DNA of 64,000 nt, taken from assembly GCA_051294375.1 (NCBI GenBank), contig JBJCIZ010000040.1, forward strand, positions 290,330 through 354,329. The letters are read 5' to 3'. This document shows positions 15,804 to 63,420 of this stretch, in pieces; within the stretch, counting starts at the first letter, position 1; each line of letters opens with the position of its first letter. The position numbers were made by a program, and so were the translations under genes. The notes under the pieces were generated by a model. That model was not told the DNA's origin. It saw nothing but the letters and a program-made list of their open reading frames with translations, and searched no databases. This stretch comes from Paraspadella gotoi (taxonomy: Eukaryota; Animalia; Chaetognatha).

Positions 15804-15884
15804 GTTGGCTTTGGGGGCTTCCGACCCTCAGTGACGCTTCCAGTCACTGGCGCGGTTACCCTAAGACAGTCTCACTTTGCCAAC
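15804..15884 (-). ncRNA. Twister ribozyme, type P5 (family 3, 5' LTR; partly mutated)
   Basis: Same fold; P2' is GUGA (one mismatch) and P1 is UCUUAGGG. Predicted cut between 15858 and 15857. Confidence 0.72.
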
Positions 15885-17897: not shown

Positions 17898-18072
17898 AAA
17901 ACAAGAACAAAAACAATTGAATGTTTTGAAAAACTAATTATACACATTCTTTTTTCAGAAATTATCAATGAACTTGCTTGATTTTTATATTAGAAATAAA
18001 ATGTAAAATTCTTCAATAAATTTGATATATTTTGTATGTTCTTTAAAGTAGCATATAGGATGAGTGTATCTG

Positions 18073-39130: not shown

Positions 39131-39838
39131 AATAATTACTAGGGTATAGAGCCATATAAAAAATTTTTTGTCCATTGAAAGTATATTTATAAATGTATAA
39201 ATTTTCGTTTCAGTATGTACTGACTCTAAATTTTTGACTTACCTCATTGAGTGCGGCTACCCCTAGTAATAAAAACTCTTTTCATTTCATTCCCATTTGA
39301 AATCTGTGTATTTATAAATTGAATGGATAATATTTTTTTTTCATTAAAACTAACCAAAATATTGTATTCATGACAGATTTTTAAATAAATAAACAAAAAT
39401 ATCTATTAATCAATTAATTATTCAATCAACCAATTAATCAATTATTTAGGTAGATCCAGCATTGTTTGCTGAAAGTTGTTAATTACTTTACTTAACTTTA
39501 CTAATCACTCATAAACACTGTTTTACAACTGTTTCATATGTGATAATCGGTAAATACAACTGCCTCCTTCCTTTAATAAAGATGGAGTTTTAAATTTTAT
39601 AAAAAACATTTTTGAAGAAAAACAAACTTAGAAAAACGCTTTACTAACAGCTATTTACTTACTTTCATGATGTCTTCATCATTAAAGTTTTTGCTGTTTT
39701 TATTATGTTGTTTGTCAAAACAAGAAATACCCATAAGGTAAAACCATTATTTTATTAACTAAAAAATTGTTAGTAAAAACTACTTTGAATGAGCTATAGC
39801 ATATGCAGCCGATGGGGTTCTGTCCTTAGATGCTAGCT

Positions 39839-41115: not shown

Positions 41116-41162
41116 ATGCTAGCTAGTATTATGGTGGACTAAAATCCACCAACCGTTCATCA

Positions 41163-41234
41163 GCGACCGTTGGTGCCGGAGGCAAGTCATTCGCCTCCCA
41201 ACCCAAAGGTCCAGGGTTCTAGCCCGGTGGTCGC
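41163..41234 (+). promoter_or_regulatory. tRNA-Gly-like module (Pol III A/B boxes) inside family 1 LTR
   Basis: Acceptor-like GCGACCG/TGGTCGC, A box TGGTGCCGGAGG, TCGCCTCCCAA resembling a Gly anticodon arm, B box GGTTCTAGCCC. Confidence 0.65.
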
Positions 41235-41236
41235 CT

Positions 41237-41312
41237 AGCAGTTAAGAGGGACGGGGCGCTTAACCCGCCTGTAACACGGTGTTACAGCCTGATCCAAAGC
41301 TCAGGGACTGCT
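41237..41312 (+). ncRNA. Twister ribozyme, type P5 (family 1)
   Basis: As 11544-11619, but the L4 loop is UCCA (weaker T1). Predicted cut U41261/A41262. Confidence 0.7.
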
Positions 41313-43549
41313 TATATTAAACGGTTCTGTCACTAACACATGACAATAATCACTGTCTTTTCATTGGTGAGCCCGACTTCCGAACACAACAGCAACAACA
41401 ACACTTTCAAGCAACATGCCTCAACCTAGAACCAAATTCCGAAACTCGATCCCAAACCTTTTTTCATAATATTTTTATATTTTTGGATAGAGAATGACTG
41501 TAATAATGTAAATCTTAAGTTACATCTACATTAGCCCATGGGTTTTGAAGAAATCGACTAAAAACAACCAAAATTCCTCTCCCTTTTTTCAACATTCTCG
41601 CCTTTTAAGATTTTCGCCGATCCTGACTGCCTCTTACAAACTTATAATTTTGCTAGTTAATTTTTTTTTCTTAAACGAGCAAAAGAAATCCACAACTTTC
41701 TAATCTTTTATAATTTCGAGGTAAAAAAATATAATACCTCTAAGGTCGGGTAAGTCTGACTGAGATCTAGGTAAGTAAAGACGGGGGAAAATGGTGGAAA
41801 AGGAATATATATTGTAAGCGGCTAAATCGGCGGTAAAAAAATGGTAACAGAGACTGACCGGGAGAGGGACGGTGAGAGAGAAAGAGAGGAAAAAGTGTGA
41901 ATGAAAAACTTAAACCTTGGACTCGAGCCTGGGTCTCCGGGGGGAGGGGGAGGAGGATGAGGAGAAATGATGAGGAAACGGTGCATGCTGGCGAAACCTA
42001 TCGGTTCTTTCTGAATACATTACATTAACATTAGGATATTGTGAAAGTGTAATGTCTTGTGAAGCCTGTGAAAGTTGAGTAATTAAAAAATTCGCCTATT
42101 TTGTTATTGAAAACTAACATTAAAGTGAAGGCTCCTTTCAGTAAACGTCCCTGTTCTCTAAAATAACTAGTGGAAAAGAAAGATAAATACTTAGACTGTG
42201 ATGGGGTGAATAATATTTTGTAGAATTTTGTAAGCATGCATGTAAAATCAGACAAGCAATTATTTAAGTGACAAAAAATTTACATTTTCTTTATCCAAAA
42301 AAACTTTTAAGTTTTACTAGAGTACAATTTAACCTTTTTTCTTTCAGAATCATTAAAAAGAATTAAATTTTCATTTATTTTTATGGGGTGTCATTAGTTT
42401 TAAAATTAATTATAATTTTGACTTAGTTTGACACTCACCCTGTAAAGAGGTTTCAGCAAAAATATTTCTAAAATTGTATCTTTTATGTGTCCTATGATTA
42501 TGGCTTTATTTTGGTACTATTGCCATCCCTTTATCTTTGTTCCTTCAAAAGATATTAGGAAAAAAAGTTTTTTCTCTCAACCTTCCTTTTAATTTCTTTT
42601 AAAATAAAAATTTTGCAATGAAAACTGGATAACTTTAATATGAAAAAATTGGTCAATAATAAAAAGAAAAATAGAACGAGCTCTAGGGACACAAGGCTTT
42701 TAGAATCTCATAATTTAAAGTGTCATTTATAATGCTAACATACCATAATCTCATTAATAACTTTAAAAAAGTGAAATTTCCCTTTCATTTCTATAGTAAA
42801 AATGAGTTTTGAAAATCCTCCGGAGATGAGTAGTTCATTTCCCCTGGCTGGTTTGATAGTAAAATCTTTATCAAATGCCACAAGAAAAAAGGAACGAGCT
42901 CTTGAGATGTAAAGCTGTCGGAATCGTGTGTTTTTACAAATGTTTTCTACTGGAACTTTTTGCAGGCTCTTTTGTAAGGTTGGGCAGTCAGATTCGAACG
43001 GAAAAATGTTTAATTTTTTTTTAGCAAGATTTTCGCCTATAGAAAGAGAAAAAAATTGTGGAAAGCTGGAAAGTTTCTAAAAAAATTTGTGGAAAAAAAA
43101 TATAAGTTATTTCCTTTACTTTCGAATTTCGAAATTCTCCTTGACCGAATTGAAAATTTTCCGTTGAAATTTTCACTCTTCACTCCGCTGGCTAGAAAAA
43201 TATTGTGGATACCCGGAAAATCTGTGGTCAACCATTTTAAAAATAGACAAGCTTAAAAATTTGCGGGCAAAAAGTGGTTGTTATTGTTCCTTCTGGTACT
43301 GGACAGCTGGTCGTGGTCATTGGCCGTAGCAACAAAAATTACAAATTTTCCACTGACTAACACGACGAACGGACGGAAAAATTGGAGAAAAATAGTATAT
43401 TTACTTCCGGCTCAGTCCATTAGAATTTCTAAACAGTCCCAATACTTTTTATTAGTAGTTTTGATGACCAGAAAATTACAAATTTTCCTGGGAAAATTTG
43501 AAATTTTTGTATTATTTTTCTCCCATTCCTCCCTTTCTATTTTCACTAA

Positions 43550-44341
43550 TTTTTAGTCGGATCTGCTTATCAGCAGATCCCGACTCTATAATTCATTTTG
43601 TCGGTCCGCCCCCTCAATATTGTCGGGCACAAACTTATATCATGTCAGAACATCGAATTATGATAAATTATGTAAAAAAAAATGATGTATGTCCGTCCGT
43701 CTGTCTGTCTGTCTGCCCGTCCGTCCCACTTTAGCAAAAAACACCAATTACTCGTGATCGGATGGATGGATTTGAAAGAAATTTTGTGTGTGGGTAGGGA
43801 AGTGTGTGATTGAGCTGGATATGAAGTTTCGATGGAATCTTCTGAGTGGAAATTAGTTTAAATAGAAAAAACATAAAAATATATTTCACTATTTGAACAC
43901 CAATTGCTCATGACTGGATGGGGCGATTGAACTTAAATTTTGTATGTGGGTAGGAAAGTGTGTGATTAAGCTGGAACTCAAGTTTTGATGGAATCGTCTG
44001 AGTGGAAATGAGTTTAAATGGAAAAAACCAAAAACCTGTTTCACTAATTGATTATGCTTATTTTTCCTTTATATTAAATGTGAATGCAGGATGTATTAAT
44101 TAATCAAATAATTAATCAATTAGTCAATTAATTAATCAATAATTAATTAATCAGTCAATCAAGACAAACGTTATCGGCATTATTCTCATCGTCATCATTG
44201 CTTTTGTTTTGGTTAGTGATGAAAAGACCTAAAAACAAACATTTGAGATCAAATTAATTAATTAATTGCCTAATTAATTAATTAATTTTAAGAATTAATT
44301 AGTTACCGAGCAGATCCGACATTGTTTGGACAAACTTGTTT
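43550..44341 (+). mobile_element. HINE/DINE-1-like element, complete copy
   Basis: T-rich 5' end, subTIR GTCGGATCTGC with nearby inverted copy, (GTCY)n microsatellite, central repeats, 3' inverted subTIR GCAGATCCGAC followed by a small stem-loop and Ts. A second truncated copy follows at 44461-44940. Confidence 0.75.
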
Positions 44342-45558
44342 CTCAACGAATGAAAATTACAAATTTCTAAAGACATATTGACAGTACTTTTGATTAGCTA
44401 TTCTGCTGACCACTAAATTTGAAAATTTGTACAGAAAAAACCTATACTAACTAACATTCCTTTTTTAGTCGGATCTGCTTATAAGCAGATCCCTACTCTA
44501 TAATTCACTTTGTCGGTTCGTTGGTCCGACCCCTCAATCTTGTCGGACATTCACATATATCATGTCATCGAAATATGACAAATTATGCAAAAAAACGATG
44601 TCTGTCCGTCCGTCTGTCCGTCCATCCATCCATCTGTCATACCTTAGCAAAAACTCCAATTCCTCGTGATTGGATGGATGGATTGGAATGAATGGGTAGA
44701 GAGTGTGATTGAGCTGGATATGAAGTTTCGATGGAATCGTGTGAGTAGAAAAGAATTTAAATGGAAAAAACAAATAAAATTATTTCACTATTTGAATGCC
44801 AATTACTCATGAGTAGATGGGACAATTGACTTGAAAATTTGTTTGTGGGTAGAAAGGTGTGTGATTAAGCTGGAAATCATGTTTCAATGGAATTATTATG
44901 CTTCTTTTTATTTTTATATTAAATTTAATGTAAAATGTATTATTGGAGTTTATGTTTGGGTAGAGTGACGGGGGTGGGGGTGAAGAGAAAAGGCCGAGAC
45001 CGACGGAGAAGGCCAGATCTGACCCATTCGACCGATTGACCGATCGACCGGACAGGGACTGACCTGACTCTTTCTCCACTCTTTCTCTCCTTCTCTCTCT
45101 TTCTCTCTCTCTCTCTCTCCAAACTTTACTTGGACAGGCTCAAACAAGACAAATTCAGATTCACTGGATCACATTTTAGAGAGATCGTCAACTACTTTCT
45201 TACAAAGTTCCTACTACGTTTTTACTAAAGATTTATCACGATTCTATTTGATTTCTCCTCGATATATAGATTCTTCATTCAATTTGATCTCGATTTTCTA
45301 CGGAAACCTCGTTTTCTACATTTTATTACATTTATTTACATTTTATTTTCGCGTTATTTCTTCCCGACTTTCGAGCTTTAGTTACATAAAACGTTTGGGA
45401 TACTTTTCGTCAGATAAGTTGCGACAAAGTGGACCATCTTCACCTCAAGAGGCGTAGAGAGCCAAGCTTCTATACAATGCCCGATGAAGCAGCTCCGCTT
45501 GACGCCAATCTTCAAGGGAGCGCCGCTCATTTGGATACCACCATTTACAAGTTAGATC

Positions 45559-45723: not shown

Positions 45724-45915
45724 NNNNNNNNNNNNNNNNNNNNNNNNNTTTTTACTTTGTTTTAATCTGTTTTTACCTTGTTTTTAAGTGGTTTTAATTG
45801 ATTTTAATTCGTTTATTCGTGCTTTTACTTGATGTCAATACATGTTTTTTAACTCGCTAAACCTTCAAATTCGGTGGCCGAGCGACTTTAGATTATTTTA
45901 GATACAAGATCAAAC

Positions 45916-48900
45916 AATATCTATTATCAATTATTATTCAATCAACCATTAATCAATTATTTAGGTAGATCCAGCATTGTTTGGCTGAAAGTTGTTAATT
46001 ACTTACTTAACTTTACTAATTCACTCATAAACAATCTTCTGTTTTACATACTGTTTTCATATGTGATAATCGGTAAATAACAACTGCCTCCTTCCTTATA
46101 ATAAAGATGGAGTTTTAAATTTTATAAAAACACATTTTTGTTAAAGAAAAACAAACTTAGAAAAAACGCTTTAAATCTAACAGCTATTTTACTTAACTTT
46201 CATGATGTCTTCATCATTAAGCTTTTTGCTGTTTTTTTATGTTGTTTGTCAAAACAAGAAATACGCCATAAGGTAAAACCATTTATTTTATTAACTAAAA
46301 AATTGTTTAGTTAAAAACTACATTTTGAATGAGCTATAGCATATGCAGCGATGGGGTCTGTCTTAGATGCTAGCTTAGGCTGTTTTCACCCCAAATTTGA
46401 AAAGTTTTCAGATCTTAATTTAGCATCTAGGAAAATATGTTGGGAGGTAAAAAAATAAGATTGTACTACTTTTTGTCAAAATTGGAGCAAACACCTTAGT
46501 GCTACCCTCGCCTAAAGGATAAAAAAGCACACCTTTGGGCACATTTTCGTCAATTGACTGAATCTTAATGATCCAATCCACGTTCCCAAAGGATCTTATT
46601 AGTTGCCAACCTTCTAAGGATGATGCAGTAAAATTCAGCTCTCTATCATGACGAAGGCCACAGCTAGAACACAAGCAGATTACTGTTGTGATGGAGTATT
46701 AGAGAACAATAGGCTTTAAATATTAAACTCAAAATAAAATCCAATTCTCTTCAGATCTAATATTTTTTGTATATAATATCATACTAGTAGGAGCCAAGTA
46801 TCCTATTTTTTGAAAGGTGTGCCCACATCCTGGTGGATACTTCCTGTACAAAACACTAAAAACATAAATCACTACTGTATATCATTTTTTCAACAGTTTT
46901 TAAATCTACAGGTGTAATTGTGACATACTAATTAGTAGTCGTCTTGCAACAGTGCAATAGACCTTAAATTTTCATGGAGTCGCACTTAAATGCAACTGCA
47001 GCAGCTTTTTGACCATTTTCTTTAATTTTATGAAAAACTAATGATGCTATTTTACCCTAACTGATCTCAATACTTGTACATGTCCATGTTTTAAATATTA
47101 ACCTTGTATAAATATTAAATATAATATCATGTCTTCGGACCTTTCTACAGTAATCACAATATGCTGGAGAAAGATTAGTGATTTTTGTTTGTTAGTGTTT
47201 TGTACAGGAAATATCCACCAGGATGTTGGCACACCTTTAAAAAATAGGACACTTGGCTCCTACTAGTATGATATTATATGAAAAATATTAGATCTAAAGA
47301 GAAATGATTTTATTTTTGAGTTTAAATGTTTAAGCCTATTGTCTCTATACTCCACCATACAGTACCTGCTGTAGTGTAAGCCTTCGTCATTATATAGAGC
47401 TGAAATTTTACTGATCATTCTTATAAGTGGGTCAACTAATAAGATCCTTTGGACGTGGATTGGCTCACGATGATTCAGTCAATTGACGAAAATGTGCCCA
47501 AGATGTGCTTTTTATCCTTTAGGCGAGGGTAGCACTAAGGGGGTTGCAACCAATTTTTTGACAAAAAGTAGTCAATCGTTATTTTTTTACCTCCCAACCT
47601 ATTTTCCTAGATGTAAATTAAGATCAGAAAACTTTTCAAATTTGGGTGAAACACCCTAATGCTAGCTAGTATTATGGTGGACTAAAATCCACCAACCGTT
47701 CATCCAGCGACCGTTGGTGCCGGAGGCAAGTCATTCGCCTCCCCAACCCAAAGGTCCAGGGTTCTAGCCCGGTGGTCGCCTAGCAGTTTAAGAGGGACGG
47801 GGCGCTTAACCCGCCTGTAACACGGTGTTACAGCCTGATCCAAAGCTCAGGGACTGCTATTATTAAACGGTTCTGTCACTAACACATGACATATCACTGG
47901 TCTTTTCATTGGTGAGCCCGACTTCCGAACACAACAGCAACAACAACACTTTCAAGCAACATGCCTCAACCTAGAACCAATTCCGAAACTCGATTCCCAA
48001 ACCTTTTTTCATATATTTTTATATTTTGGATAGAGAATGACTGTAATAATGTAAATCTTAAGTTACATCTACATTAGCCCATGGGTTTTGAAGAAATCGA
48101 CTAAAAACAACAAAATTCCTCTCCTTTTTTCAACATTCTCGCCTTTAAGATTTTCGCCGATCCTGACTGCCTCTTACAAACTTATAATTTTTGCTAGTTA
48201 ATTTTTTTTTCTTAAACGAGCAAAAGAAATCCACAACTTTCTAATCTTTTATAATTTCGAGGTAAAAAAATATAATACCTCTAAGGTCGGGTAAGTCTGA
48301 CTGAGATCTAGTAAGTAAAGACAGGGGAAAATGGTGGAAAAGGATATATATTGTAAGCGGCTAAATCGCGGTAAAAAAATGGTAACAGAGACTGACCGGG
48401 AGAGGGACGGTGAGAGAGAAAGAGAGGAAAAAGTGTGAATGAAAAACTTAAACCTTGGACTCGAGCCTGGGTCTCCGGGGGAGGGGAGGAGGATGAGGAG
48501 AAATGATGAGGAAACGGTGCATGCTGGCGAAACCTATCGGTTCTTTCTGAATACATTACATAACATTAGGATATTGTGAAAGTGTAATGTCTTGTGAAGC
48601 CTGTGAAAGTTGAGTAATTAAAAAATTCGCTCTATTTTGTTATTGAAAACTAACATTAAAGTGAAGGCTCCTTTCAGTAAACGTCCCTGTTCTCTAAAAT
48701 AACTAGTGGAAAAGAAAGATAAATACTTAGACTGTGATGGGGTGAATAATATTTTGTAGAATTTTGTAAGCATGCATGTAAAAATCAGACAAGCAATTAT
48801 TTAAGTGACAAAAAATTTACATTTTCTTTATCCAAAAAAACTTTAAGTTTACTAGAGTACAATTTAACCTTTTTTCTTCAGAATCATTAAAAGAATTAAA

Positions 48901-51900
48901 TTTTCATTTATTTTTATGGGTGTCATTAGTTTTAAAATTAATTATAATTTTGACTTAGTTTGACACTACACCCTGTAAAGAGGTTTCAGCAAAAATATTT
49001 CTAAATTGTATCTTTTATGTGTCCTATGATTATGGCTTTATTTTGGTACTATTGCCATCCCTTTATCTTTTGTTCCTTCAAAAGATATTAGGAAAAAAGT
49101 TTTTTCTCTTCAACCTTCCTTTTAATTTCTCTTTAAAATAAAAATTTGCAATGAAACTGGATAACTTTAATATGAAAAAATTGGTCATAATAAAAAAGAA
49201 AAATAGAACGAGCTCTAGGACACAAGGCTTTTTAGAATCTCATAATTTAAAGTGTCATTTATAATGCTAACATACCATAATCTCATTAATAACTTTAAAA
49301 AAGTGAAATTTCCCTTTCATTTCTATAGTAAAAATGAGTTTTGAAAATCCTCCGGAGATGAGTAGTTCATTTCCCCTGGCTGGTTTGATAGTAAAATCTT
49401 TATCAAATGCCACAAGAAAAAAGGAACGAGCTCTTGAGATGTAAAGCTGTCGGAATCGTGTGTTTTTACAAATGTTTTCTACTGGAACTTTTTGCAGCTC
49501 TTTGTTAAGGTTGGGCAGTCAGATTCGAACGGAAAAATGTTTAATTTTTTTTAGCAAGATTTTCGCCTATAGAAAGAGAAAAAAATTGTGGAAAGCTGGA
49601 AAGTTTTCTAAAAAAATTTGTGAAAAAAAATATAAGTTATTTCCTTTACTTTCGAATTTCGAAATTCTCCTTGACCGAATTGAAAATTTTCCGTTGAAAT
49701 TTTCACTCTTCACTCCGCTGGCTAGAAAATATTGTGGATACCCGGAAAATCTGTGGTCAACCATTTTAAAAATAGACAAGCTTAAAAATTTGCGGGCAAA
49801 AAGTTGGTTGTTATTGTTCCTTCTTGGTACTGGACAGCTGGTCGTGGTCATTGCCGTAGCACAAAAATTACAAATTTTCCACTGACTAACACGACGAACG
49901 GACGGAAAAATTGGAGAAAAATAGTATATTTACTTCCGGCTCAGTCCATTAGAATTCTAAAACAGTCCCAATACTTTTTATTAGTAGTTTTGATGACCAG
50001 AAAATTACAAATTTTCCTGGGAAAATTTGAAATTTTTGTATTATTTTTCTCCCATTCCTCCCTTTCTATTTTCACTAATTTTTAGTCGGATCTGCTTATC
50101 AGCAGATCCCGACTCTATAATCATTTTGTCGGTCCGCCCCTCAATATTGTCGGGCACAAACTTATATCATGTCAGAACATCGAATTATGATAAATTATGT
50201 AAAAAAAATGATGTATGTCCGTCCGTCTGTCTGTCTGTCTGCCCGTCCGTCCCACTTTAGCAAAAAACACCAATTACTCGTGATCGGATGGATGGATTTG
50301 AAAGAAATTTTGTGTGTGGGTAGGGAAGTGTGTGATTGAGCTGGATATGAAGTTTCGATGGAATCTTCTGAGTGGAAATTAGTTTAAATAGAAAAAACAT
50401 AAAAATATATTTCACTATTTGAACACCAATTGCTCATGACTGGATGGGGCGATTGAACTTAAATTTTGTATGTGGGTAGGAAAGTGTGTGATTAAGCTGG
50501 AACTCAAGTTTTGATGGAATCGTCTGAGTGGAAATGAGTTTTAAATGGAAAAAACCAAAAACCTGTTTCACTAATTGATTATGCTTATTTTTCCTTTATA
50601 TTAAATGTGAATGCAGGATGTATTAATTAATCAAATAATTAATCAATTAGTCAATTAATTAATCAATAATTAATTAATCAGTCAATCAAGACAAACGTTA
50701 TCGGCATTATTCTCATCGTCATCATTGCTTTTGTTTTGGTTAGTGATGAAAAGACCTAAAAACAAACATTGAGATCAAATTAATTAATTAATTGCCTAAT
50801 AATTAATTAATTTAAGAATTAATTAGTTACCGAGCAGATCCGACATTGTTTGGACAAACTTGTTTCTCAACGAATGAAAATTACAAATTTCTAAAGACAT
50901 ATTGACAGTACTTTTGATTAGCTATTCTGCTGACCACTAAATTTGAAATTTGTACAGAAAAAACCTATACTAACTAACATTCCTTTTTTAGTCGGATCTG
51001 CTTATAAGCAGATCCCTACTCTATAATTCACTTTGTCGGTTCGTTGGTCCGACCCTCAATCTTGTCGGACATTCACATATATCATGTCATCGAAATATGA
51101 CAAATTATGCAAAAAAACGATGTCTGTCCGTCCGTCTGTCCGTCCATCCATCCATCTGTCATACCTTAGCAAAAACTCCAATTCCTCGTGATTGGATGGA
51201 TGGATTGGAATGAATGGGTAGAGAGTGTGATTGAGCTGGATATGAAGTTTCGATGGAATCGTGTGAGTAGAAAAGAATTAAATGGAAAAACAAATAAAAT
51301 TATTTCACTATTTGAATGCCAATTACTCATGAGTAGATGGGACAATTGACTTGAAAATTTGTTTGTGGTAGAAAGGTGTGTGATTAAGCTGGAAATCATG
51401 TTTCAATGGAATTATTATGCTTCTTTTTATTTTTATATTAAATTTAATGTAAAATGTTATTATTGGAGTTTATGTTTGGGTAGAGTGACGGGGTGGGGGT
51501 GAAGAGAAAAGGCCGAGACCGACGGAGAAGGCCAGATCTGACCCATTCGACCGATTGACCGATCGACCGGACAGGGACTGACCTGACTCTTTCTCCACTC
51601 TTTCTCTCCTTCTCTTCTTTCTCTCTCTCTCTCTCTCCAAACTTTACTTGGACAGGCTCAAACAAGACAAATTCAGATTCACTGGATCACATTTTAGAGA
51701 GATCGTCAACTACTTTCTTACAAAGTTCCTACTACGTTTTTACTAAAGATTTATCACGATTCTATTTGATTTCTCCTCGATATATAGATTCTTCATTCAA
51801 TTTGATCTCGATTTTCTACGGAAACCTCGTTTTCTACATTTTATTACATTTATTTACATTTTATTTTCGCGTTATTTCTTCCCGACTTTCGAGCTTTAGT

Positions 51901-51994
51901 TACATAAAACGTTTGGGATACTTTTCGTCAAATAAGTTGCGACCAAGTGGACCATCTTCACCTCAAGAGGCGTAGAGAGCCAAGCTTCTCTACA
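45916..51994 (+). repeat. Indel-rich duplicate of 39398-45474 (includes a third family 1 twister LTR at 47673-47908)
   Basis: Colinear copy starting shortly after an N-gap, with identical insertion junctions. Confidence 0.9.
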
Positions 51995-52920
51995 GGGAGT
52001 GGAGTTTATGTTTGGGTAGAGTGACGGGGTGGGGGAGTGGAGTTTATGTTTGGGTAGAGTGACGGGGTGGGGGAGTGGAAATTATGTTGGGTAGAGTGAC
52101 GGGGTGGGGAGTGGAGTTTATGTTTGGGTAGAGTGACGGGGGTGGGGGAGTGGAATTTATGTTTGGGTAGAGTGACGGGGGTGGGGAGTGGAGTTTATGT
52201 TTGGGTAGAGTGACGGGGTGGGGGAGTGGAGTTATGTTTGGGTAGATTGACGGGGGTGGGGGAGTGGAATTTATGTTTGGGTAGAGTGACGGGGTGGGGG
52301 AGTGGAGTTATGTTTGGGTAGATTGACGGGGGTGGGGAGTGGAAATTATGTTTGGGTAGAGTGACGGGGGTGGGGGAGTGGAGTTTATGTTTGGGTAGAG
52401 TGACGGGGTGGGGGAATGGAATTTATGTTTGGGTAGAGTGACGGGGTGGGGGAGTGGAGTTTATGTTTGGGTAGAGTGACGGGGGTGGGGAGTGGAGTTT
52501 ATGTTTGGGTAGATTGACGGGGGTGGGGGAGTGGAATTTATGTTTGGGTAGAGTGACGGGGGTGGGGGAGTGGAGTTTATGTTTGGGTAGAGTGACGGGG
52601 GTGGGGGAGTGGAGTTTATGTTTGGGTAGAGTGATGGGGTGGGGAGTGGAATTTATGTTTGGGTAGAGTGACGGGGGTGGGGAGTGGAGTTTATGTTTGG
52701 GTAGATTGACGGGGGTGGGGAGTGGAATTTATGTTTGGGTAGAGTGACGGGGGTGGGGGAGTGGAGTTTATGTTTGGGTAGAGTGACGGGGGTGGGGAGT
52801 GGAGTTTATGTTTGGGTAGAGTGACGGGGTGGGGAGTGGAGTTTATGTTTGGGTAGAGTGACGGGGGTGGGGAGTGGAGTTTATGTTTGGGTAGAGTGAC
52901 GGGGTGGGGAGTGGAGTTTT
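51995..52920. repeat. G-rich 38-39 bp minisatellite, about 24 units
   Basis: Unit ggagtggagtttatgtttgggtagagtgacgggggtgg. Confidence 0.95.
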
Positions 52921-54141
52921 GGGCGATACCGCGGAGTCAGGTGTTGATTTGATGTCTTGATTTTTGTGCTTGTCCCGATTGGTGTAGCTTGATCATTTCC
53001 TCCCTGGAAAAGTAATATGAAAAGGGTGAATAACAAGACGGGACAAAATTGATCACTTTTTATCATTAAGAGTTCTGTAATATAAAGTTCATTTGTCCAT
53101 AATGTACTTAATCAATATTTAATATCACTATTTTAACTAGTAAAGCACGGTATAACATTAAAGCATTTAAATATTTATCAATGCAAAGGCAATGAAAAAT
53201 TTTTTTGTAAAAAATTTACTTTTTTAAGAACGGATTCAGGTAGCCCATGAAAAGTTGTCTACACATATTATAATGCGTTTTTTAATATTTCGATGATAAG
53301 TGGGTAAAATAATGAAAAAACTCTTTAAAATCATCATCATCGTACCATAATTTTTATAGCTTTTGCTAATTTTAAGCAATAAAACAAAAAATTTGAAAAT
53401 CTTGTAGTAATATTTTTTATTTATTTTTTTAATTTCTACCCGAATCTGTTTTAAAAAATTCTGATTTTGAAATAGTAATACGATAAATTTTAAATGCTTC
53501 TATGTTATTAACTATATATAAAATCAAATTTTTTTTTTAATTTCGTCATCCCACAGGGATGCTCTAACGTTATTTATATTACAGAACACTTAGTTTTTAC
53601 TTTGTTCCGCCCTAGTGAATAATAACATTCAAATTAGGTAAAAAGAGACAAATGACAATTAATTATCATAAGGAAATCATTTTGTTCTATTCATTTATTG
53701 TACAGATTATAAAAGAAAAACAAGACTCACCAGAGTTGATCAACGCGGTCTCGTCATAAGCCGTGTCTTTTGCATCTTGACGTCATTTTTTCTGCACAAT
53801 GAAAATAGGGAAACGAAAGAAAAGGGAGGGTTAAAATGGTTTGTTTAAAATGCAAGAAGATTGCTCAACAAATTTATATCCAAAGATACATTTAATTAAC
53901 TATTAAAAAATCCGAATCTAGTGCAAACCTTCATCGGAGTAAGACAATTGTGAATTTTGAAAAAATATTATATAATTCTGGCGACTCGAGTTGATCTCAG
54001 TCAACCAGATGACCTTCGTCACAAAGAGACTGTGAACCCTCAGACATCAGCGTCGTCGGCTGACTTCTTATTTTTACATTGTAAAGTTTCTCTCTCTTTT
54101 TCGTATTTCAAGCCAAGAACTAAAATCACGTTTTTATCTTT

Positions 54142-55191
54142 TTAATGCGCTGGGCGACCAATAGTGGGAATTTTGTGCCGGACTCCATGCTTCACCTCTT
54201 TAGCTTGGAAAGAGGGATTGGTAAGGTCAGGATAGTTGTCAAGAAGTTTTGAAAACGGGTTCTCTGCTGCATTGATGTAGTTGATGCCATCTGAAATAGT
54301 GTCGTCGGCAAATAAAGCTTTGATTTTTGAAAAGTCATTCAGATCCAAAAGAAGGCCATCCTTTTTGTTTGGTGCTAAATAATATTCGGCGAGGAAGTCG
54401 GCACCCAAGATTGGTTGCTTGACATCGGCGACGGTGAGTGAAAAGGGAGGTTTATTTCCATCATGGTGGTTCCATAGCTTTGGATAATGGTTCCATTGGC
54501 GGCTCTTAAATTTCCTAATGATGGTCCCTGACGGCGCTGCTCGGGGGTTGGGGGGATGATAGAGAGTAAAGCACCACTGTCAATGAGCCAGCGGCACTTG
54601 TTGACGCCATCGTGAACATATAGGAGTTTGCTGTCCTCAGATTGGCCGGGGACAGAGTTCACATCTGTCCTCCGGCCTCTGCTTTTCCCATCTTTTGGAT
54701 CGCACATCCAGGGAGGCATTTCTTTGATTTGGCACCAAAACGTTCGTGGTAAAAACAAAGTTTGTACTTTTCCTTGGTGGCCGCGAGTTTGGCGCTCTTT
54801 GAGGATTTTTCCTTCCAAGGACGAGAGAAAGGTTGAGTTGATTTTTGTTGTTTTGGCTTTTCTCCAATTGCATTGTCATCGACGTTGTCAGCATCTTTAT
54901 CATCTCCATTTAGGGAGTTGTCAGCGCAATAGTCTACTTCGTTGATAGACAAGGACGAGGACGAGTGAAGAGGGCGTCCCTGGGGATCGAAGTATAGGTC
55001 TGCAATGCTGGCTGCAGTCTTAGCATTGATTTCAGCTATTTTGTCGACCACTGAGCGCTGGATCTCTGATGGCAGTTCTCGTAGCATCAACTCCTTGAGC
55101 AAATCATCTATTGTGACGTCATCAGCTTTTTCAGCTTCGCAAGAAGCTGCGATGGGCGTCGGCCATCTTGGCAAATTCCATCAATGAGGAA
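54142..55191 (-). mobile_element. Older Ty3/Gypsy element, gag C-terminal half, protease and RT start (3' truncated)
   Basis: CFYHERFGAKSKKCLPGC, WLIDSGA, LRAANGT, GADFL, HGVRHKIPT. Confidence 0.85.
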
Positions 55192-56302
55192 TAAGGCATA
55201 GTAAAATTTCTAAATTTAACTTTAATTAAAATTCTAAAAGTGAGGATCGAAAAACATTATACTAATGAACATTTATGTAATAAAAAAATTTACAATAAAT
55301 TTTATAATTTACGCAGTAGGCCATATTTATACTAGTACTAAACCAATAAATGTTCAAATTTCAAAACAGTTTTTTCTAAGATTTTTTTGCAGATTTGGAT
55401 TCGTCATAAAAAGTTGGTAAAAAGAAATATAACTCTTTTTAAAAAATTCCTTCATTAAGTGGGTCAAAAATTAGAAAAAGCTATATTTTAAGCTGAAAAT
55501 TAACTTTTTATATATTAAATATAGTTTTTTAAATTTTTAACCCACTTAATGAAAGAATTTTTAAAAATGATTTTTATTTTCTTTTATCAACTTTTGACGA
55601 GGAATTCAAATCTGCAATCAAAATTAAAAAAAGCCTATTTTAAAATTTTTCGATATTATAAGGATAGTACTGAAGCAAAGGAAAAGACTTTTTGTAGAGA
55701 AAAGTATTATTTACTTTAAAATTGTAACACATTAACAAGAAGAAATTGAACAGAGAGAATCAGAGGGGAATCTGTACAGCAAAACTGTAAAACAATTGAA
55801 GAGAGAAATTCACTAGGTGGCGAATTAAAACTAACTAAAGGGGACACTATGTGGGAGAGTGAACAAAGGGTTGTGGATAGAAAATAGTCACTATGACAAC
55901 ATGTAAACAATTCGCTACATCCCCGCCCCAAGGCCACGACCGGGGTTGTTGCCTGATAGATGCTAACTAGTATTTACAAAAGAGTTTTGTGTTTTTTAGT
56001 TCAGAAGTTGAAAAATATTCCTATTGACGCTGTTGACACCAAGACCTTCGTCCGAAGGTAAAAGCATTGCAGGAAGCGCCGGCCGGTCTCGAGCATTACG
56101 ATGAGGTTGGCGACGGGACGGGGTTGGCGGCGGTGGCGTCGGAGGACGCGTTCGGGGCGGCCACGGCGGTTCCTTGGAGTGGCTTGTGGTGGAAATTGTG
56201 GAAGCTGGGTTGGTGTGGGTAGAAGTGGTTTGCGGATAGGGCGACCACATGGTGGAGCCATGGGTGGAGTTGGGGGATTGGTTGGGTCGGTGAAGGCTGG
56301 TT

Positions 56303-58174
56303 TTAGTCTGTCAACAGATATTTCTTCTGTTCCACGGCCAGGGATGTCGATTTTAAAATTCTTAGGGCCTCGTTCAATGAAGCAGTAAGGGCCTGTATAT
56401 GGACTTGAAAGGCTGTGGCCTTGTGGGCCGCGGAGAATAAAAACGAATTCCGAATTTCTGGTAGCACATATGTTGTTTGGAGGCCGTGGGAGGTGGCAGG
56501 GATGGGGCGCATAAGGGCGACGTCATGTCTTAGATTGTCAAGGAGTACCTGCTGGTTATTGTCTTGGTCATGGTTGTTGGATGCAGGGTTTATTTCTCCG
56601 GGAATAGTGAGAGTGTCTCCCAGGACCAATTCTGCTGGTGAGGCCTGGAGATCGTCTCTGTGGGTGGTTCTGATGCCGAGTAGTGTCCATGGGAGTTGGT
56701 TGAACCAATTAGAGCCTTGGGCGTCGCAACGTGTCTTTAGTGATGTTTTGAGTGTACGGTGCATCCGTTCCACCATGCCATTAGATTGAGGGTGGTATGC
56801 TGTGGTGGTTTGAAGTGTGTAACCAATTAGTTGAGAGAGTTGGTGCCACAATTCCGATGTAAATTGTGGGCCTTTGTCTGATATGACTGTAGATGGGATA
56901 CCGAATCTTACAATCCAGTTGTGAAGGAAGGCTGAGGCAATTGTTTGAGAAGTGGTATCTCTTAAAGGAATAGCTTCTGGCCATCGTGTAAATCTGTCAA
57001 TGCAAGTAAGAAGGTGAGTATGATTGTTTGATTCTGGCAGGGGGCTTACAATGTCAACATGAATGTGGTCGAATCTCTTTTGTAGTGTTTCGAAGGGTTG
57101 TAGGGGGGCATGTGTGTGGCGGTAGATTTTATTTTGCTGACAGATGAGACATGTACGAGCCCAGTTGTTGATGTCTTGTGATGCTGAAGGCCAGATAAAT
57201 CGTTTGGTGATGAGTTTTTGTGTTGACCTGATGTTTGGATGAGAGAGTGAGTGGATGGTGTCAAATACTTTTTGACGCCAGGTTGTAGGGACAATAGGGC
57301 GTGCTCTCCCAGTGTTTACATCACAAATGAGGTCGATGTCATTAACTTTGACTTGTTGAAATTTAAGGCTTGTGTGAGGGTCACTGAGCAGCCGTTGTGT
57401 GTCTGGGTCGGTAGTTTGTTCCTGGGCAAATGCTGTGAAATCAACACCTTGAGGGCCAATGGCGTTGATAGTGGATTCGAGCGTGGGGGTGGTTGCAGGT
57501 GAGTGTTTTACGCGGGACAGGGCGTCAGCTACGAGATTTGACTTGCCTTCAATGTATTTTATGTCTGTGGTGAATTCGGAAATGTTTGCTAGTTGGTATG
57601 ATTGACGCATGGTGTGAGGTTCTGTCTTTTTGCGGATGGCTGGGATTAGACTGTTGTGGTCAGAAAAAAGAGTGAAATGGCGCCCCTCAATGAAAGGGCG
57701 AAAATGGCGTACTGATCTGTGCGCTGCAAGCAGTTCTTTATCGAACGGTGACCATTTAGTTTGTGGTTCCTTGAGTGGAGCAGAGAAAAAACCTAGTGGT
57801 TGCCATGTAGAGTTGATGAGCTGCTCCAGAACGCCTCCTATGGCCGTATTAGAGGCATCAACTGTGAGGGCAAGGGGTGCACTATCAATTGGATGAACAA
57901 GCATAGTGGCATTGGCCAGTGCTTGCTTGACACCATCGAATGCTTGCTGACATTCTTCTGTCCACTGGAGTCGTTTTGGATTGCCGCAAAGTGCAGAGTA
58001 AAGGGGAGTGAGAATGCTTGCGATCTTGGGGATGAATATCCTGTAGTAGTTAAGCATTTCTAAAAAGCGTTGGGCTTCTTTAATGGTCGTGGGTGAGGGA
58101 ATGTTATGAATGGCTTCAACTTTGCTTTTGAGAGGTTTGACGCCTTTGGCATCAACATGGTAAGAAAATGCCAA
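56303..58174 (-). pseudogene. Gypsy RT connection, RNase H and integrase
   Basis: TVDAS, KELLA, SDH, NLVADALSR, HSLSHP..CLIC, IDRFTRWPEA, SDKGPQF, YHPQSNGMVER. Confidence 0.95.
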
Positions 58175-58216
58175 GAAAATTGAGTGATTCTACTCCTAAA
58201 ACACATTTAGCACGGT

Positions 58217-59017
58217 TTATGACCAGGCCATTGGTTTCCAGTGCATCAAAGAGGCGATTAAGGTCTTCAACATGCTCTGAAGGTGTGGTTGATTGGTTGG
58301 TGCGACAAGAATATCGTCAAGATAGACAAAGATGTGAGGAATGCCTTGCAGGACTTGATCCATCATTCTTTGAAAATCTTGTCCTGCATTTTTGAGTCCA
58401 AATGGAGTGCGTGGAAATTCCCAATTGCCAAATGGAGTAATGACTGCGGTTTTGTGAATGTCTTGTGGAGCAACTGGGATTTGATGATAACCTTTACAGA
58501 GATCTACCTTGCTAAAGATTTTCTTGCTTGCAATATGAGCATTGAAATCGCTGAGGTTTCTAATGGGATAGCGATTGTCCTTAGTGGCTGCATTGAGTTT
58601 TCTGTAATCGCCACATGGGCGCATTGATCCATCTGGTTTTCTCACCATGTGCAGTGGAGAAGACCATGCGCTTTTGCTTCTCCTGACAATACCAAGCTTC
58701 TTCATTCTTTCAAATTCGGCTTTGGCTATGGCAAGCTGGTCCGGGGCGAGCCGACGGGCGCGGGAATGAACTGGTGGACCTTCTGTGGGAATGTGGTGCT
58801 CAATGCCGTGTTTTGGTTTTGAAGGGTCGAATGAGAGTGTTGTGAGATTTTGTCGGTCATCAAGGAGCTTGGTGTATTGATTGACAACATGGTTGACGCG
58901 AAAGGTGTGATCTTTGTAGGTTTTGCCTGTGACTGTGGTAAAATCCTCAAGATCAATGAGGAGACCGAGAGTGTGGTCGGCTGTAAGGTGAAAATCCATG
59001 AGGAAGTCTGCTCCCAA
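58217..59017 (-). pseudogene. Gypsy reverse transcriptase
   Basis: WSSPLHMVRKPDGSMRPCGDYRKLN, PFGLKNA, YLDD. Confidence 0.95.
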
Positions 59018-59280
59018 AATAGGTGTGGTTATGTTTGCGACAGTGAAGTTCTATTCAAAACTGCGGCTGCCCAGTTGAAGTGTCATATTATGTGTGCCAT
59101 AGCAGTCGATAGGTGTGCCATTGGCGGCGTGAAGTGACTTTGAGATTGGGCCATTTGCTAATTGAGCTGAGGTTGGTGCAATGAGTGAGACACTGGCGCC
59201 GCCATCTACTAGCCAGGTGATGTTGTTGTTGTCGTCGCGGACATGAAGAGGTATGATGTTGCCGGCAGCGGCGTTTATCC

Positions 59281-60505
59281 CTAATGGCTGCCGGCCTGGC
59301 CATTTCCCCGGTAGCGGCAGGGAAGCTTACATTTTTTAGCTCTGGATCCGAATTCGTTGTGGTACCAACAATAGTTGGGGTTGTTTTGTTTGGAGTTGTT
59401 GTTGTTGTTGGTTGAGTTTCTCTGGAAGTTGTTGTTGCGTCTCTGTAGGTTTGGCCTGTTTGTCTTAAATCTTTGGCTGTTGTTGGTGGCAGCGCAGACA
59501 TTGGCATAGGTTGGAGTAGTGTAGAGTGGTTGATCAGCTTCTTCAGTGACATTGCAGATAAGCTCATCATCCTCAATGCTGCTGTCGCAAGTTAGTTCCA
59601 CTTCTGGTGGTTGCCAATGGTGGAGGTGGTTGACAGATGATGTGGTGGCGGAGGGAGTGTTGGCCTTGAGAGCCAACTCACCTGATGCTGTGTAAAAAGA
59701 GTCGGCATGCTTGGCGATTGCCTCTAGTTTTATGTCGTCCTTAATGACGACATTACAAACATGGTGAGGAAGGACGCTGGCGAGAATCTCGCGACAAAGG
59801 TCGTCAACGGAAAGTTTAGCAACGGTAGCTCTGAGAGCGGCGACAAACTGGGATGGCGTTCGTCCGCGAAGAGAATGAGGGCCAAGGAATTTAGCTGCTC
59901 GTTGGCGTGGCTTCTCCTCAAAGAGTTCATATAAAGTATTTTCCAAATCCATAAGACTTTGTTGAGTTTCATTTGGATAAAGATAAAAATCGTGAAGCAG
60001 TACTTGATGCTCTTTCGGTATAGCAGCTAGAATGTGGAGACGTTTTGTGGCTGGGTCAGTAACTTTTGCAAGCTGAAATGCGCCAGTTGCGGCAGCTATC
60101 CACATTCAAATGTTTTGTGAATCAAATGGGGGCAGTTTTGGGGTTTTTGGCCATTCCTCTTGAGTGGGAATGGGAGTGGTGTTTATTGGGGAGTGGGTAG
60201 TGCTTGGCGCTGTGGTAGTGTTATTGAATTGGTTCAGAAATTGTGTTGTGAATTCTTTAAACATTTCATGCATATGGGCGGTTAATTCATTTTTCATTTG
60301 ATTTAAGGTTGCTTCAATTGGAGGTGGGTTGTTGGCGGTCCATGTTTTCTACGTCTTCAAAAACGGAAGAGTTGGTAACGGCGCTGTTCGCGATGCTTGA
60401 GATGCTCGAGCGGGTGGTGGGAGGCCCAGAACCCACGATTCGGACGCTAGAGATACTGGAGCTGACGCGAGATCTTGCGCGACCACAAGGGATCAGTTGT
60501 TCCAA
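59281..60505 (-). pseudogene. Gypsy gag (interrupted by stops/frameshift)
   Basis: PKLPPF, GRTPSQF and the CWYHNEFGSRAKKCKLPC knuckle. Confidence 0.85.
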
Positions 60506-60942
60506 TGGCGACGCCGTTTTGACTTTGTTCTTTTAGTCGGGCTCACCATGAAGCAAAGGAAAAAACTTTTTATAGAGAAAAGTATTATTTACTTTAAAAA
60601 TGTAACACATTAACAAGAAGAAATTGAACAGAAAGAAATATGAGGGGAATCTGTACAGCAAAACTGTAAAACAATTGAAGAGAGAAATTCACTAGGTGGC
60701 GAATTAAAACTAACTAAAGGGGGCACTATGTGGGAGAGTGAACAAAGGGTTGTGGATAGAAAATAGTCACTATGACAACATGTAAACAATTCGCTACAGT
60801 ACTATATATAAATATAATCACTGCGAAAATTAAAAAACATAAAATTAATTTTTTTTACAAATTAATGTTCACTGATGGTATGTTGTTCATAATTGACTTT
60901 TAGAATTTTCGTATGTAACTTTCATTACCCCTTAATGAGGAA

Positions 60943-61520
60943 TGATGCCTTTTAAGCCTTAGTTCTGCCATATTCTTTTTTGAGGTAGGTGAGGAACAGG
61001 ATCCAATTTTCCTCCGTTGGTTCTCCATAGAGGAAAGAGTTTATTTGAGGATTAAAGTCCACCTTAAACTTGGATTCCAGATGAGCAAATTTATATTTTG
61101 CGTCGGTTATGTTCACTCAAGTGAAGGCCACTTCAATTCATTTTATCCAGATAGAGATGTTTTGAGGGTCGAAATCTTGAAGCTCCGGCTTCTTGAGCTG
61201 CTTTTGCTGCTGTTGCCACTGCTGCTGTATCTACTCTTGTGAAATGAATTTTGCTGTAGCAATGCGTAGACTGCTGCTGCCACAGCATTGGCGAAACGGT
61301 CTTCCGAGTCCTGATGTTGGCCATCATTTCCAGGAGCACTAGACGCCGTTGCGGGGGTGACACTTGCGTGATTCATCCTCGCGGGTTACTCTGCGCCAGG
61401 AAAGAAGAGTTGGTTACTTGCGGCAGATGGGGAAGTAGAAGGGGATATTCGTCCTCGACCAGCAGGAGGAGGAACGGCGAGAGATGTAGAGCGGGTGATT
61501 GGCCTGTTGGAGCTGTCCAT
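60943..61520 (-). mobile_element. Older Gypsy, gag N-terminal half
   Basis: Reading continues across the MITE TSD (..KASFL|IDGICQDGRRPSQ) into 55191. Confidence 0.65.
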
Positions 61521-62139
61521 GAGCATCAGTTAGTAAGCTGGGATCGTTATTTGATGCGGGAGGGCGCTGGAGGATGCGCCAGTCTTTAAACCGGCGGCGT
61601 TGTTGACTTGTTCCCGTTGGCGTTAGACGGGGGTTGGGAGAAAAGAATGGGGAGTGGGTGAGATTAAAGGGCGAGGGAATCGCTTAATTTCAATGTTATC
61701 TCGCCCTTACCTGAGAAATGATAAGTTTCCACGTTGGCCCCATTTTCGCCGGTATTTGATTAGGAATTTTGATAATGTTTAGCGATGTATAGGATTCGAG
61801 GACAATTAAAGTCAAAGGATCAGAGAGGTTGGAAAGAAGTTCGTAAGAAGGGTTAACCAATGTGGATAGATCTCGAGGTATTTCTGAGTAACATTTTTTC
61901 AATGTTTTTGATAAAAATAACCAGCAACGTTGAGAGGTTTAAAAGGTATAATAATCATAGCAGGAAACAGCAACTACAAAAGCAAGAAAACCAGTATATA
62001 AAGTTTTACTTGGGGAAATATAAACTGAAATACGACGTCATCAAGATATTGGCTGATGAGAAATAAAAGAGCAATGTTACATAAGAACAAAGGGTAAGGC
62101 TCGCGCTCGCTCCGAGAAAATAGGGACATATAGAGTTTT

Positions 62140-63420
62140 TTCAGTTCGGGTTAGGGTTTGGGAGTTTACAAACGGGTTTTTAGCTAGGGTTAGGGTTGAA
62201 GAGTTTACAAAATATAAAAATAAGGACGTATTGAGTTTTTTGAGTTAGGGTTTGGGAGTTTACAAATACATTTTCTAGCTTGACGTGTGAGATTTTAGAG
62301 TTTAGGGTTAGGATTGAGTAGTGTACGTTAGGGTTGGGTTGAATATTGATATTGAAGCATGGGTTAGGGTTAGAAAGTTTACAAATCGTGTTTTAGGGTT
62401 AGGGTTGTAGTATGTAGCCTTCAGTCCTGGCAGCAAAATTAATTATTATTAATTATAGTAATTTATTTACAAAGGAACCAAATTATATTTAACTATCAAA
62501 TTATGTAATACATCTTTTTATGTCTCCTAAATTAATTTAGGAGACATTTAGGAGACATTCGTTCTAGTTATGGCAACTTTGACTAAACTAAACTCAGATT
62601 AGGGTTAGTGTTAGGCTTGAGGTGGTTTAGGGTTGAGTAGGTCAAGGGTTAGGATTGAGTTGGTAGTAGTTAGGGTTAAGGTTGAGTAATTTTGGGTTAG
62701 GGTTGAGTAGTTTAGGGTTAAGGTTAGAGTTAAGTTCATTTTAGGGTTAATGTCAATTTTAGGGTTAGGGGTAGGGATGTTGTTGATGAACAGGAGGCCC
62801 ATGTTAGGGTTAGGGTAGGTACTGGTGAGGGACATTAGGGATTAGGGTTGAGGCACGGAGATGTACGGGAGGCCTGGGCTCGGTTTAGAGTTAGGGTTGG
62901 GAGAGAGGCACAGAGTTGAACAGGAGGAATGGTTTAGGGTTAAGGTTGGTAGAGGGGCCCATGGTTGACACATCGAAGGCGGTTAAGGATAGGGTTGAAG
63001 GACAAAGACTATGGGAGTTTCGGGCCTGGATTAGGGTTAGGGGAGAGGCACGGAGTTGAATGGAGAGGCCTGGTTTAGGGTAAGGGTTGGGGGAGGGACC
63101 CATGGTTGACGCATCAAAGGCGGTTAGGGTTAGGGTTGAGGCACGGAGATGTATGGGAGGCCCGGGCCAGGGTTAGAGTTAGGGGAGAGGTACAGAGTTG
63201 AACGGGAGGCCTGGTTTCGGTTTATGGTTGTGGGAGGAGCCCGTTGTTGACATGTCGAAGGCGGTTAGGGTTAGGGTTGAACAGGAGTTGAACGGGAGGC
63301 CCCGGATTATGGTTGAGGGTGACGGGTGAGGCACAGAATTGAACGGAGGCCTGGTTAGGGTTAGAGTTTTTGGAGGGGCCGTGGTTGACGTGTCGAAGGC
63401 GGTTAGGGTAGGGGGAGGAG
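62140..63420 (+). repeat. Degenerate TTAGGG-rich interstitial or subtelomeric-type repeat
   Basis: Many (TTAGGG)1-3 runs embedded in a longer imperfect unit (ccatggttgacacatcgaaggcggttagggttagggttgaggcacggag). Confidence 0.8.

Follow-up and report, generated by a model that had tools for sequence, protein, structure and literature searches.

Twister-like folds in the LTRs of small animal elements that share a tRNA-Trp-type PBS with a CsRn1-like Gypsy element

Introduction

The LTR retrozymes described so far are plant elements that carry hammerhead ribozymes and are associated with tRNA-Met, and the animal retrozymes on record are LTR-less partners of Penelope-like elements (PMC7229834; bioRxiv 10.64898/2026.07.22.740005). 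A July 2026 preprint places LTR retrozymes "primarily" in plants (bioRxiv 10.64898/2026.07.22.740005). Naming a helper from a common PBS and TSD is standard practice, and has been used both for plant retrozymes (PMC4918200) and for the Helenus elements of animals (PMC10886601). Twister ribozymes have been linked in print to RTE LINEs (PMC8501958). In the literature that we covered, which largely leaves out subscription journals, we found no report of twister-bearing LTR elements or of animal LTR retrozymes.

The CsRn1 lineage of Ty3/Gypsy elements is defined by a Trp PBS, a CHCC Gag, a GPY motif and 4-bp TSDs (PMC3630058). The published PBS consensus of the clade, TGGTGA[G/C]CCCG[T/A], is complementary to tRNA-Trp; its members make 4-bp TSDs, their LTR ends may take the form TGT...ATA, and target preference is reported to be absent (PMC2582038). 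A PBS in two parts, one for the acceptor stem and one for the T arm of the primer tRNA, is known in Ty1 and Ty3 (PMC5371799). No report of ribozyme-bearing dependants of the CsRn1 clade was found in the literature covered.

Here, we describe three families of small LTR elements with twister-like folds, together with a Gypsy element that has their PBS in common, all within one 64-kb stretch of animal DNA (hereafter the window, meaning the whole stretch analysed).

Results

A CsRn1-like Gypsy element and its relatives

The 15 bases that an earlier note on this DNA had singled out (60534-60548) form the PBS of a Ty3/Gypsy element of 5,128 nt on the minus strand (60798-55671). The PBS reads TGGTGAGCCCGACTA as the reverse complement of these positions, abuts the 250-nt 5' LTR (60798-60549; TGT...TCA) and has GAACA, which matches the T-arm side of the tRNA, 5 nt behind its first 13 nt. 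The 249-nt 3' LTR (55671-55919), which differs from the 5' LTR by seven substitutions, is directly preceded by a G-rich polypurine tract (PPT; 55920-55932), and the whole element is flanked by the TSD GTAC (60799-60802 and 55667-55670). On the same strand, gag (59284-60270) gives a weak, DUF7041-like match below the Pfam cut-off, with the CHCC motif CX2HX9CX3C (CWYHNEFGSRAKKCKLPC) at 59370 and a stop near 60108. The pol region (56303-59280) is spread over several frames and includes Pfam matches to RT (YLDD), RNase H (DAS) and integrase (HHCC) domains, a protease region without D-S/T-G, and a GPY motif at 56393 in a frame other than that of the integrase core. No env or chromodomain match was obtained in the element. 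Those of its RT homologues that have names come from a fish, a nematode, molluscs, a flatworm and a sea cucumber, which, together with the BEL/Pao element described below, a kind confined to animals, points to an animal host.

As assembled, with its gag stop, its interrupted pol and its protease without D-S/T-G, this copy is not an intact autonomous element, and the frame breaks may be real decay or assembly errors. At the protease site, all on the minus strand, this Gypsy reads DGG (~59220) and a nested remnant described below reads DGS (~23415), with DSG/DTG in the element at 54.6 kb; DGG/DGS may therefore be a subfamily trait rather than decay. The Gypsy was inserted in a MITE-like repeat, of which an empty copy lies at about 16800-17379. 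It is the innermost layer of a three-layer nest (54058-61760), in which a decayed CsRn1-like element holds an AT-rich palindromic MITE-like repeat and this repeat in turn holds the Gypsy, at GTAC. A degenerate, TTAGGG-rich, telomere-like repeat lies nearby at 62130-63420.

Judged by its Trp PBS, CHCC Gag, GPY motif and 4-bp TSD, the element is CsRn1-like: all four defining traits are present, and the assignment is one by motifs. CHCC motifs occur at three places in the window (59370, 54757 and 23582), so the genome holds at least three related CsRn1-like lineages. The second is an older, decayed element on the minus strand (54058-61760, outer limits approximate; CHCC at 54757) with an RT fragment that is 34% identical, and the third is a gag/protease remnant, also on the minus strand, that lies within a BEL/Pao element (23300-24000, limits approximate; CHCC at 23582). 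A PBS was not found for either of these two. The BEL/Pao element is present twice (18072-25440 and 26683-34137; 92.5% identical), flanking an N gap, and the two copies are possibly an assembly or haplotype duplicate. A Trp-type PBS is absent from its 5' end, and the CsRn1-like Gypsy is the only coding element of the window to have one. Among nine related metagenome loci, five carry the CHCC Gag, and three of those five carry a Trp PBS, in each case with C at position 7, which makes this PBS a trait of the clade.

Three families of small elements

Two of the small families are represented by complete elements. Family 2 is a 671-nt element on the plus strand (12495-13165) with LTRs at 12495-12758 and 12881-13165, a PBS at 12760, a G-run PPT and the TSD AATT. 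Family 3 is a 712-nt element on the minus strand (15293-16004) with LTRs at 16004-15752 and 15546-15293 (TGT...ATA), a PBS at 15749 and the TSD ATTC. Both are below 1 kb, with two LTRs, PBS, PPT and TSD, and are thus TRIMs; their LTRs span about 250-285 nt, their internal parts 122 and 205 nt, their GC content is 56%, and their longest ATG frames encode 69 and 70 aa. The internal part of family 3 includes two near-identical short hairpin repeats (15641-15711), with a CT microsatellite nearby.

Family 1 is present as a solo LTR (11432-11670, plus strand; TSD ATAT) and as an LTR followed by a PBS (41130-41390, plus strand; LTR 41130-41363, PBS 41365), for which no partner LTR was found. The latter occurs a second time (47673-47935, plus strand; PBS 47910) inside a 6.5-kb duplication and is not an independent insertion; a two-LTR copy of family 1 was not found in the window. 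This tandem duplication (39379-45476 and 45896-51994; 97%, with many single-base indels) lies around an N gap and is possibly an assembly artefact. Next to the family 1 LTR at 41130, and ending 6 nt before it, is an element with terminal inverted repeats of about 490 nt (39832-41123). Tandem repeats, with units of about 38 nt and 18 nt, occupy 51989-52987, and 7751-8177 and 10736-11268.

The termini of the small elements vary, with family 1 starting in TA instead of TG and family 3 ending in TA instead of CA. Divergence between the paired LTRs is 1.5% in family 2, 2.8% in the Gypsy and 4.4% in family 3. In each of four sequencing runs the depth over all three small families far exceeds that over the flanking exons (in run X1, about 1.3-5.2 x 10^5 against 27-36), a difference to be read as a sign of heavy repetition and not as copy number. 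These exons, on the plus strand at 13220-13535 and 14145-14710, belong to a host gene with cysteine-rich Ephrin_rec_like repeats. Contigs of run X7 (guessed to be RNA) align over them alone and continue elsewhere, as spliced RNA would, which puts family 3 antisense within an intron. Family 2 and the solo LTR of family 1 are probably in sense orientation in the upstream intron of the same gene.

PBS, TSD and LTR ends compared

According to the earlier note, the PBS of the Gypsy is common to all three small families. This was borne out for family 1 (41365 and its duplicate at 47910; 14/15, the first 14 bases identical) and for family 3 (15749, minus strand; 14/15). The site of family 2 at 12760 fits as well, but reads TGGTGAGGCCC, with one extra base. 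That base is missing from most of the depth in three of the four runs: coverage without it amounts to 73,529 of 90,452 in X3, 19,968 of 29,099 in X1, 10,969 of 16,808 in X5 and 413 of 1,019 in X7. Five sites in the window lie within two mismatches of the 15-mer, four of them behind an LTR end and the fifth (20202) within the BEL/Pao element. By chance, any one site would match at 14/15 or better with a probability of 1.5e-8, which rises to 9e-7 once the leading TGG is taken as given. LTR and PBS are separated by 0 nt in the Gypsy and by 1, 1 and 2 nt in families 1, 2 and 3.

In line with the same note, TSDs are 4 bp at all four insertions that can be delimited (Gypsy GTAC, family 1 solo LTR ATAT, family 2 AATT, family 3 ATTC), that of family 1 being weak in its AT-repeat context, and no 5-bp duplication fits any of the four. 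All four TSDs also read purine-N-N-pyrimidine, for which the chance is 0.4%, post hoc and with n=4; we set this pattern aside because the clade is reported to lack target preference. The LTRs of family 1 and of the Gypsy do both end in TTCA, the ends of the small-family LTRs agree with a Gypsy end in 4-6 of 7 nt, and the TGT...ATA ends of family 3 are a form allowed in the CsRn1 clade. The description of the PPTs as G-rich applies in part: over the last 11 nt before the LTR there are nine purines in the Gypsy and seven in family 2, whereas family 3 has a weak tract (five of 11) that lies 3 nt off the LTR. Family 1, having no two-LTR copy in the window, offers no PPT to compare. The PPT region of family 3 matches that of the Gypsy at 11 of 13 positions (chance about 9e-5, post hoc). 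Beyond the PBS, blastn of the Gypsy against the small elements gave no meaningful similarity in LTRs or internal parts. Finally, in two of the four runs, one contig each joins the end of a family 1 LTR to the GTAC site of the repeat also used by the Gypsy, a weak link as the short side of these junctions is 28-29 nt.

A two-part site for tRNA-Trp

The Gypsy PBS is an exact fit to the published CsRn1-clade consensus and pairs at 12 of 13 positions with bee tRNA-Trp (sequence from PMC10886601 Fig. S2). A second stretch of tRNA likeness follows. Just behind the PBS of family 3, plus-strand positions 15719-15734 are identical, 16/16, with a nematode tRNA-Trp (PMC6903752) across its variable loop and T arm, and positions 12789-12799 of family 2 are complementary, 11/11 nt, to a wheat tRNA-Trp fragment (PMC8722339); the rough chances of these matches are 9e-7 and 7e-4, respectively. 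For the same T-arm stretch the match is 7 nt in family 1 (in the copy at 41130-41390), 5 nt in the Gypsy and 6 nt in the autonomous relative L003, with each match beginning 3-5 nt after the thirteenth base of the PBS, although words of 5-7 nt are individually weak. Together, these sequence matches indicate that tRNA-Trp is almost certainly the primer, by way of a two-part site comprising the acceptor stem and the T-arm side. At position 7 of the PBS, all four families mismatch the bee and nematode tRNA-Trp as published; the host's own tRNA may differ, and no tRNA gene lies within the 64-kb window. Two further observations were set aside. The Gypsy contains an 8-nt T-arm word (60312) that is no more than chance would give, and a comparison of a 16-nt motif from the window with viral contigs was uninformative, giving 16 loci of which two had tRNAs (Thr and Ala) and none Trp.

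Twister-like cores in the small-family LTRs

We then applied a descriptor of the P5-permuted twister, composed after sight of these sequences, to the whole 64 kb. It gave seven matches, one in each of the seven small-family LTRs and each in PBS sense, and none elsewhere. In shuffled windows a loose form of the descriptor, which does not ask for the palindrome, matched 0.48 times per window (maximum 2), and none of 100 shuffles gave a match with a self-complementary linker. The cores lie at 11554-11611 (predicted cut after 11568) and 41247-41304 in family 1, at 12617-12680 and 13024-13087 in family 2 (plus strand; predicted cuts after 12631 and 13038) and at 15875-15813 and 15416-15354 in family 3 (minus strand), the predicted monomers being 407 nt for family 2 and 459 nt for family 3. 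Both monomers are predicted to have more stable folds than sequences from a crude doublet shuffle (z -2.3 and -5.6, respectively; 40 shuffles). The statement in the earlier note that the Gypsy LTR has no twister also held: neither strand of its 5' LTR contains an L4 word, and the descriptor has no match anywhere in the element.

The helices were parsed by hand, since a MAFFT alignment did not follow the structure of the cores. All seven cores have the conserved GA, UAA, GC and U..AAGC, and with them the GC/GC pairing of the T2 pseudoknot. The T1 pseudoknot, formed by three different sequences, pairs at 3/3 positions in five cores and at 2/3 in the two duplicated family 1 cores; indeed T1, P1, P3 and P4 differ in sequence among the families and yet pair, which is covariation. 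P2 is less complete, with 4/4 pairs in one of the seven cores, 3/4 in another and 2/3 in five, so that families 1 and 2 have two pairs and a mismatch. Since P2 falls below four base pairs, we call the cores twister-like. In family 1, furthermore, an A-U replaces the G-C pair that extends P4, a pair described as essentially invariant in twisters, where a change in P2 length may also disrupt the active site (PMC5408937). The letters commoner in the genome at three family 3 positions bear on these pairings, improving them at 15409 (T1) and 15864 (P1) and breaking one P2 pair at 15413.

Rfam gave Twister-P5 as the best match for family 2, across the whole model, at 16.7 bits against a gathering score of 37.6 (E 0.14), and a partial match for family 3 at 13.5 bits (E 2.1); family 1 had no twister match. 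Rfam reported no ribozyme either at the gathering score or with a cut-off of E<=5 over 6 kb, and there was no hammerhead match. No twister-like match was obtained in seven of the nine metagenome loci scanned, from which the LTRs are mostly missing. One viral contig, L001, matched the pattern of twister plus PBS, and was judged a chance match, having neither an LTR nor a twister context.

P1 takes an unusual form in all three families, being a self-complementary word of 6-8 nt without a loop. It can form 3-4 pairs only between two copies, and the predicted duplex has -5.6 to -11.0 kcal/mol. A twister that lacks P1 is reported to cleave almost as fast as the wild type (PMC5408937), so dependence on such a dimer is not required. 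On these structural predictions, the cores would probably cleave, at U^AA, and two copies pairing through the loop-less palindromic P1 would probably assist.

Discussion

The shared PBS and TSD length point to a CsRn1-clade element as the source of Gag, RT and integrase for the small elements, and supply in trans from that clade is very probable given these sequence features. The earlier note's view that the clade of this Gypsy mobilises the small elements thus holds up well, with the clade now taken to be CsRn1-like and the primer to be tRNA-Trp. Its further suggestion, of a helper in the same window, finds no support as far as this copy is concerned. This copy is broken, it has only the PBS in common with the small elements, two more CHCC elements are present, and PBS and TSD are clade-wide; the flagged copy is very unlikely to be a working helper. 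With a broken copy, two other CsRn1-like remnants in the window and a PBS that is a clade trait, the clade is all that can be named. The proximity of Gypsy and TRIMs carries no weight as evidence, because the small elements are highly repeated. Nor does TSD length single out the CsRn1 clade, since the Helenus TRIMs of animals, which use several other primers, also make 4-bp duplications (PMC10886601).

How such elements might be copied is suggested by the ribozyme-circle model published for plant retrozymes (PMC7761336), which we carry over here by inference. In a transcript that spans the two LTRs, cutting at U^AA in each of them would release units of 407 nt (family 2) or 459 nt (family 3), each with exactly one LTR and no terminal repeat. 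Linear reverse transcription of a one-LTR unit of this kind would be unable to make the first strand jump. If a host ligase closed the unit into a circle, that jump would no longer be needed; the helper's RT, primed by tRNA-Trp at the PBS, would then cross the circle junction and rebuild LTR-internal-LTR DNA, for insertion by the helper's integrase with a 4-bp TSD. More speculatively, pairing of the palindromes within one transcript could favour the cutting of complete elements over solo LTRs, although P1-less twisters can cleave. By analogy with the plant model, we incline slightly towards this sequence of same-site cutting in both LTRs, ligase closure and RT crossing the junction in place of first strand transfer. 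For the whole picture, in which the small elements are TRIMs copied by CsRn1-clade enzymes and their LTR twisters cut the transcript into a one-LTR unit that is likely replicated through a circle, we are somewhat in favour. The small elements would then probably be the animal, twister-based counterpart of plant LTR retrozymes. A wider proposal is tentative, and we hold it with more doubt than belief: that of an animal LTR retrozyme class with at least three families and a double twister, in which the two LTR twisters would cut solely when joined through the loop-less palindrome, so that complete elements are cut and circularised and solo LTRs stay silent in host introns, which hijacks CsRn1 particles and whose tRNA-Trp site is longer than that of its helper.

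The sub-threshold Rfam scores, the short P2 and the changed P4 pair could instead mean that these are ordinary CsRn1-mobilised TRIMs, replicated as linear RNA with an R repeat, in which the fold is dead or serves end trimming, packaging or dimerisation. We think this unlikely: three LTR families without detectable similarity have all retained GA, UAA, GC and U..AAGC, and the pseudoknot covaries, which would be unexpected of a dead fold. It is less likely still that family 1 is no TRIM and represents an LTR from a larger CsRn1-like element, possibly an autonomous one, which itself bears the twister and acts as source and helper of the small families. No two-LTR copy of family 1 is present in the window, as such a reading would have it, and the leader behind its PBS (GAACAC...AGCAA.AAC...ATG) resembles that of the autonomous relative L003. 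This likeness is, however, accounted for by complementarity to tRNA-Trp together with CAA repeats. The leader ATG opens a short frame unlike gag, and the sequence further downstream has no match other than its own duplicate.

Returning to the CsRn1 clade as helper, we regard it as very improbable that the specific one is the flagged Gypsy copy or the family to which it belongs, even though this copy has in common with the small families the G at PBS position 7, which is C in all three metagenome relatives with a PBS, matches family 3 in its PPT, and has an LTR divergence (2.8%) between those of families 2 (1.5%) and 3 (4.4%). The copy is broken, the G variant falls within the published clade consensus (PMC2582038), the ATA ends of family 3 are absent from the Gypsy, and there are two other CHCC families for which a PBS was not found. 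A helper from outside the clade is scarcely credible, whether a Trp-primed Gypsy of another clade or a Penelope/Naiad-derived origin, with retrozymes of the non-LTR type being moved by target-primed reverse transcription. A wasp Gypsy whose clade is not stated is also primed by tRNA-Trp (PMC10886601), and animal retrozymes have been linked to Penelope-like elements (bioRxiv 10.64898/2026.07.22.740005). In the window, however, the sole Trp-type PBS on a coding element belongs to the CsRn1-like Gypsy, the 5' end of the BEL/Pao element having none. Moreover, the two LTRs, PBS, PPT, TG/TA termini and 4-bp TSDs of the small elements are integrase signatures, which are absent in the non-LTR retrozymes as described (PMC7229834). 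A Penelope origin of the ribozyme module of the TRIMs is possible.

If the preferred reading, of CsRn1-mobilised TRIMs processed by twisters, is true, then the strategy of ribozyme and circle would have arisen anew with a different ribozyme class, primer and helper clade, and the twister class would have a natural role in making circles. A small, nameable pair of helper and parasite would also allow a test of whether circular RNA replaces first strand transfer in LTR reverse transcription.

Comparison with known systems

The Gypsy element resembles described members of the CsRn1 clade (PwRn1 and AgCR, PMC2582038; CsRn1_Cv1, PMC3630058) in its Trp PBS, CX2HX9CX3C Gag, 4-bp TSD, GPY motif and lack of env or chromodomain matches, and differs from them in its LTR ends (TGT...TCA), its DGG protease site and the broken state of the copy. 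The cores of the small elements follow the order of the type-P5 twister (Rfam RF02684; PMC5408937), namely GA-T1'-P1-UAA-P2-GC-P3-P4-L4(U..AAGC), and depart from it in their loop-less self-complementary P1, their short P2 and a score below the Rfam threshold. The T-variants on Perere-3 in Schistosoma are likewise associated with a retrotransposon, but there a single copy sits at the 5' end of a LINE, whereas the TRIMs have two per element inside their LTRs (PMC8501958).

Among small animal elements, Helenus/TRIMp3 and other TRIMs (Kojima 2024, PMC10886601) also have 4-bp TSDs and Gypsy helpers named by PBS match, including one Trp-primed pair; their LTRs are described as holding tRNA-like promoters, in contrast to the twister-like folds found here. 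Metazoan non-LTR retrozymes are, like the present families, small, multi-copy, ribozyme-bearing elements, with units of 150-450 nt (PMC7229834; bioRxiv 10.64898/2026.07.22.740005), yet they are tandem repeats with type I hammerheads, tied to Penelope-like elements and without LTR, PBS or PPT, a definition that does not extend to the TRIMs (PMC7229834).

The closest likeness is to plant LTR retrozymes (PMC4918200; PMC7761336), which are also non-coding and GC-rich (56% here), with a ribozyme motif in each LTR, a PBS, a PPT and 4-bp TSDs, and whose Gypsy helper was likewise named from PBS, PPT and LTR ends in common and nothing further. They differ in having a type III hammerhead where the TRIMs have a twister-like P5 fold, tRNA-Met in place of tRNA-Trp, and a monomer of about 700 nt, compared with 407-459 nt as predicted for the TRIMs (PMC4918200; PMC7761336). 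With neither a hammerhead nor a tRNA-Met PBS, the TRIM families are therefore not filed as LTR retrozymes of the plant type; by analogy, they likely work in the same way.
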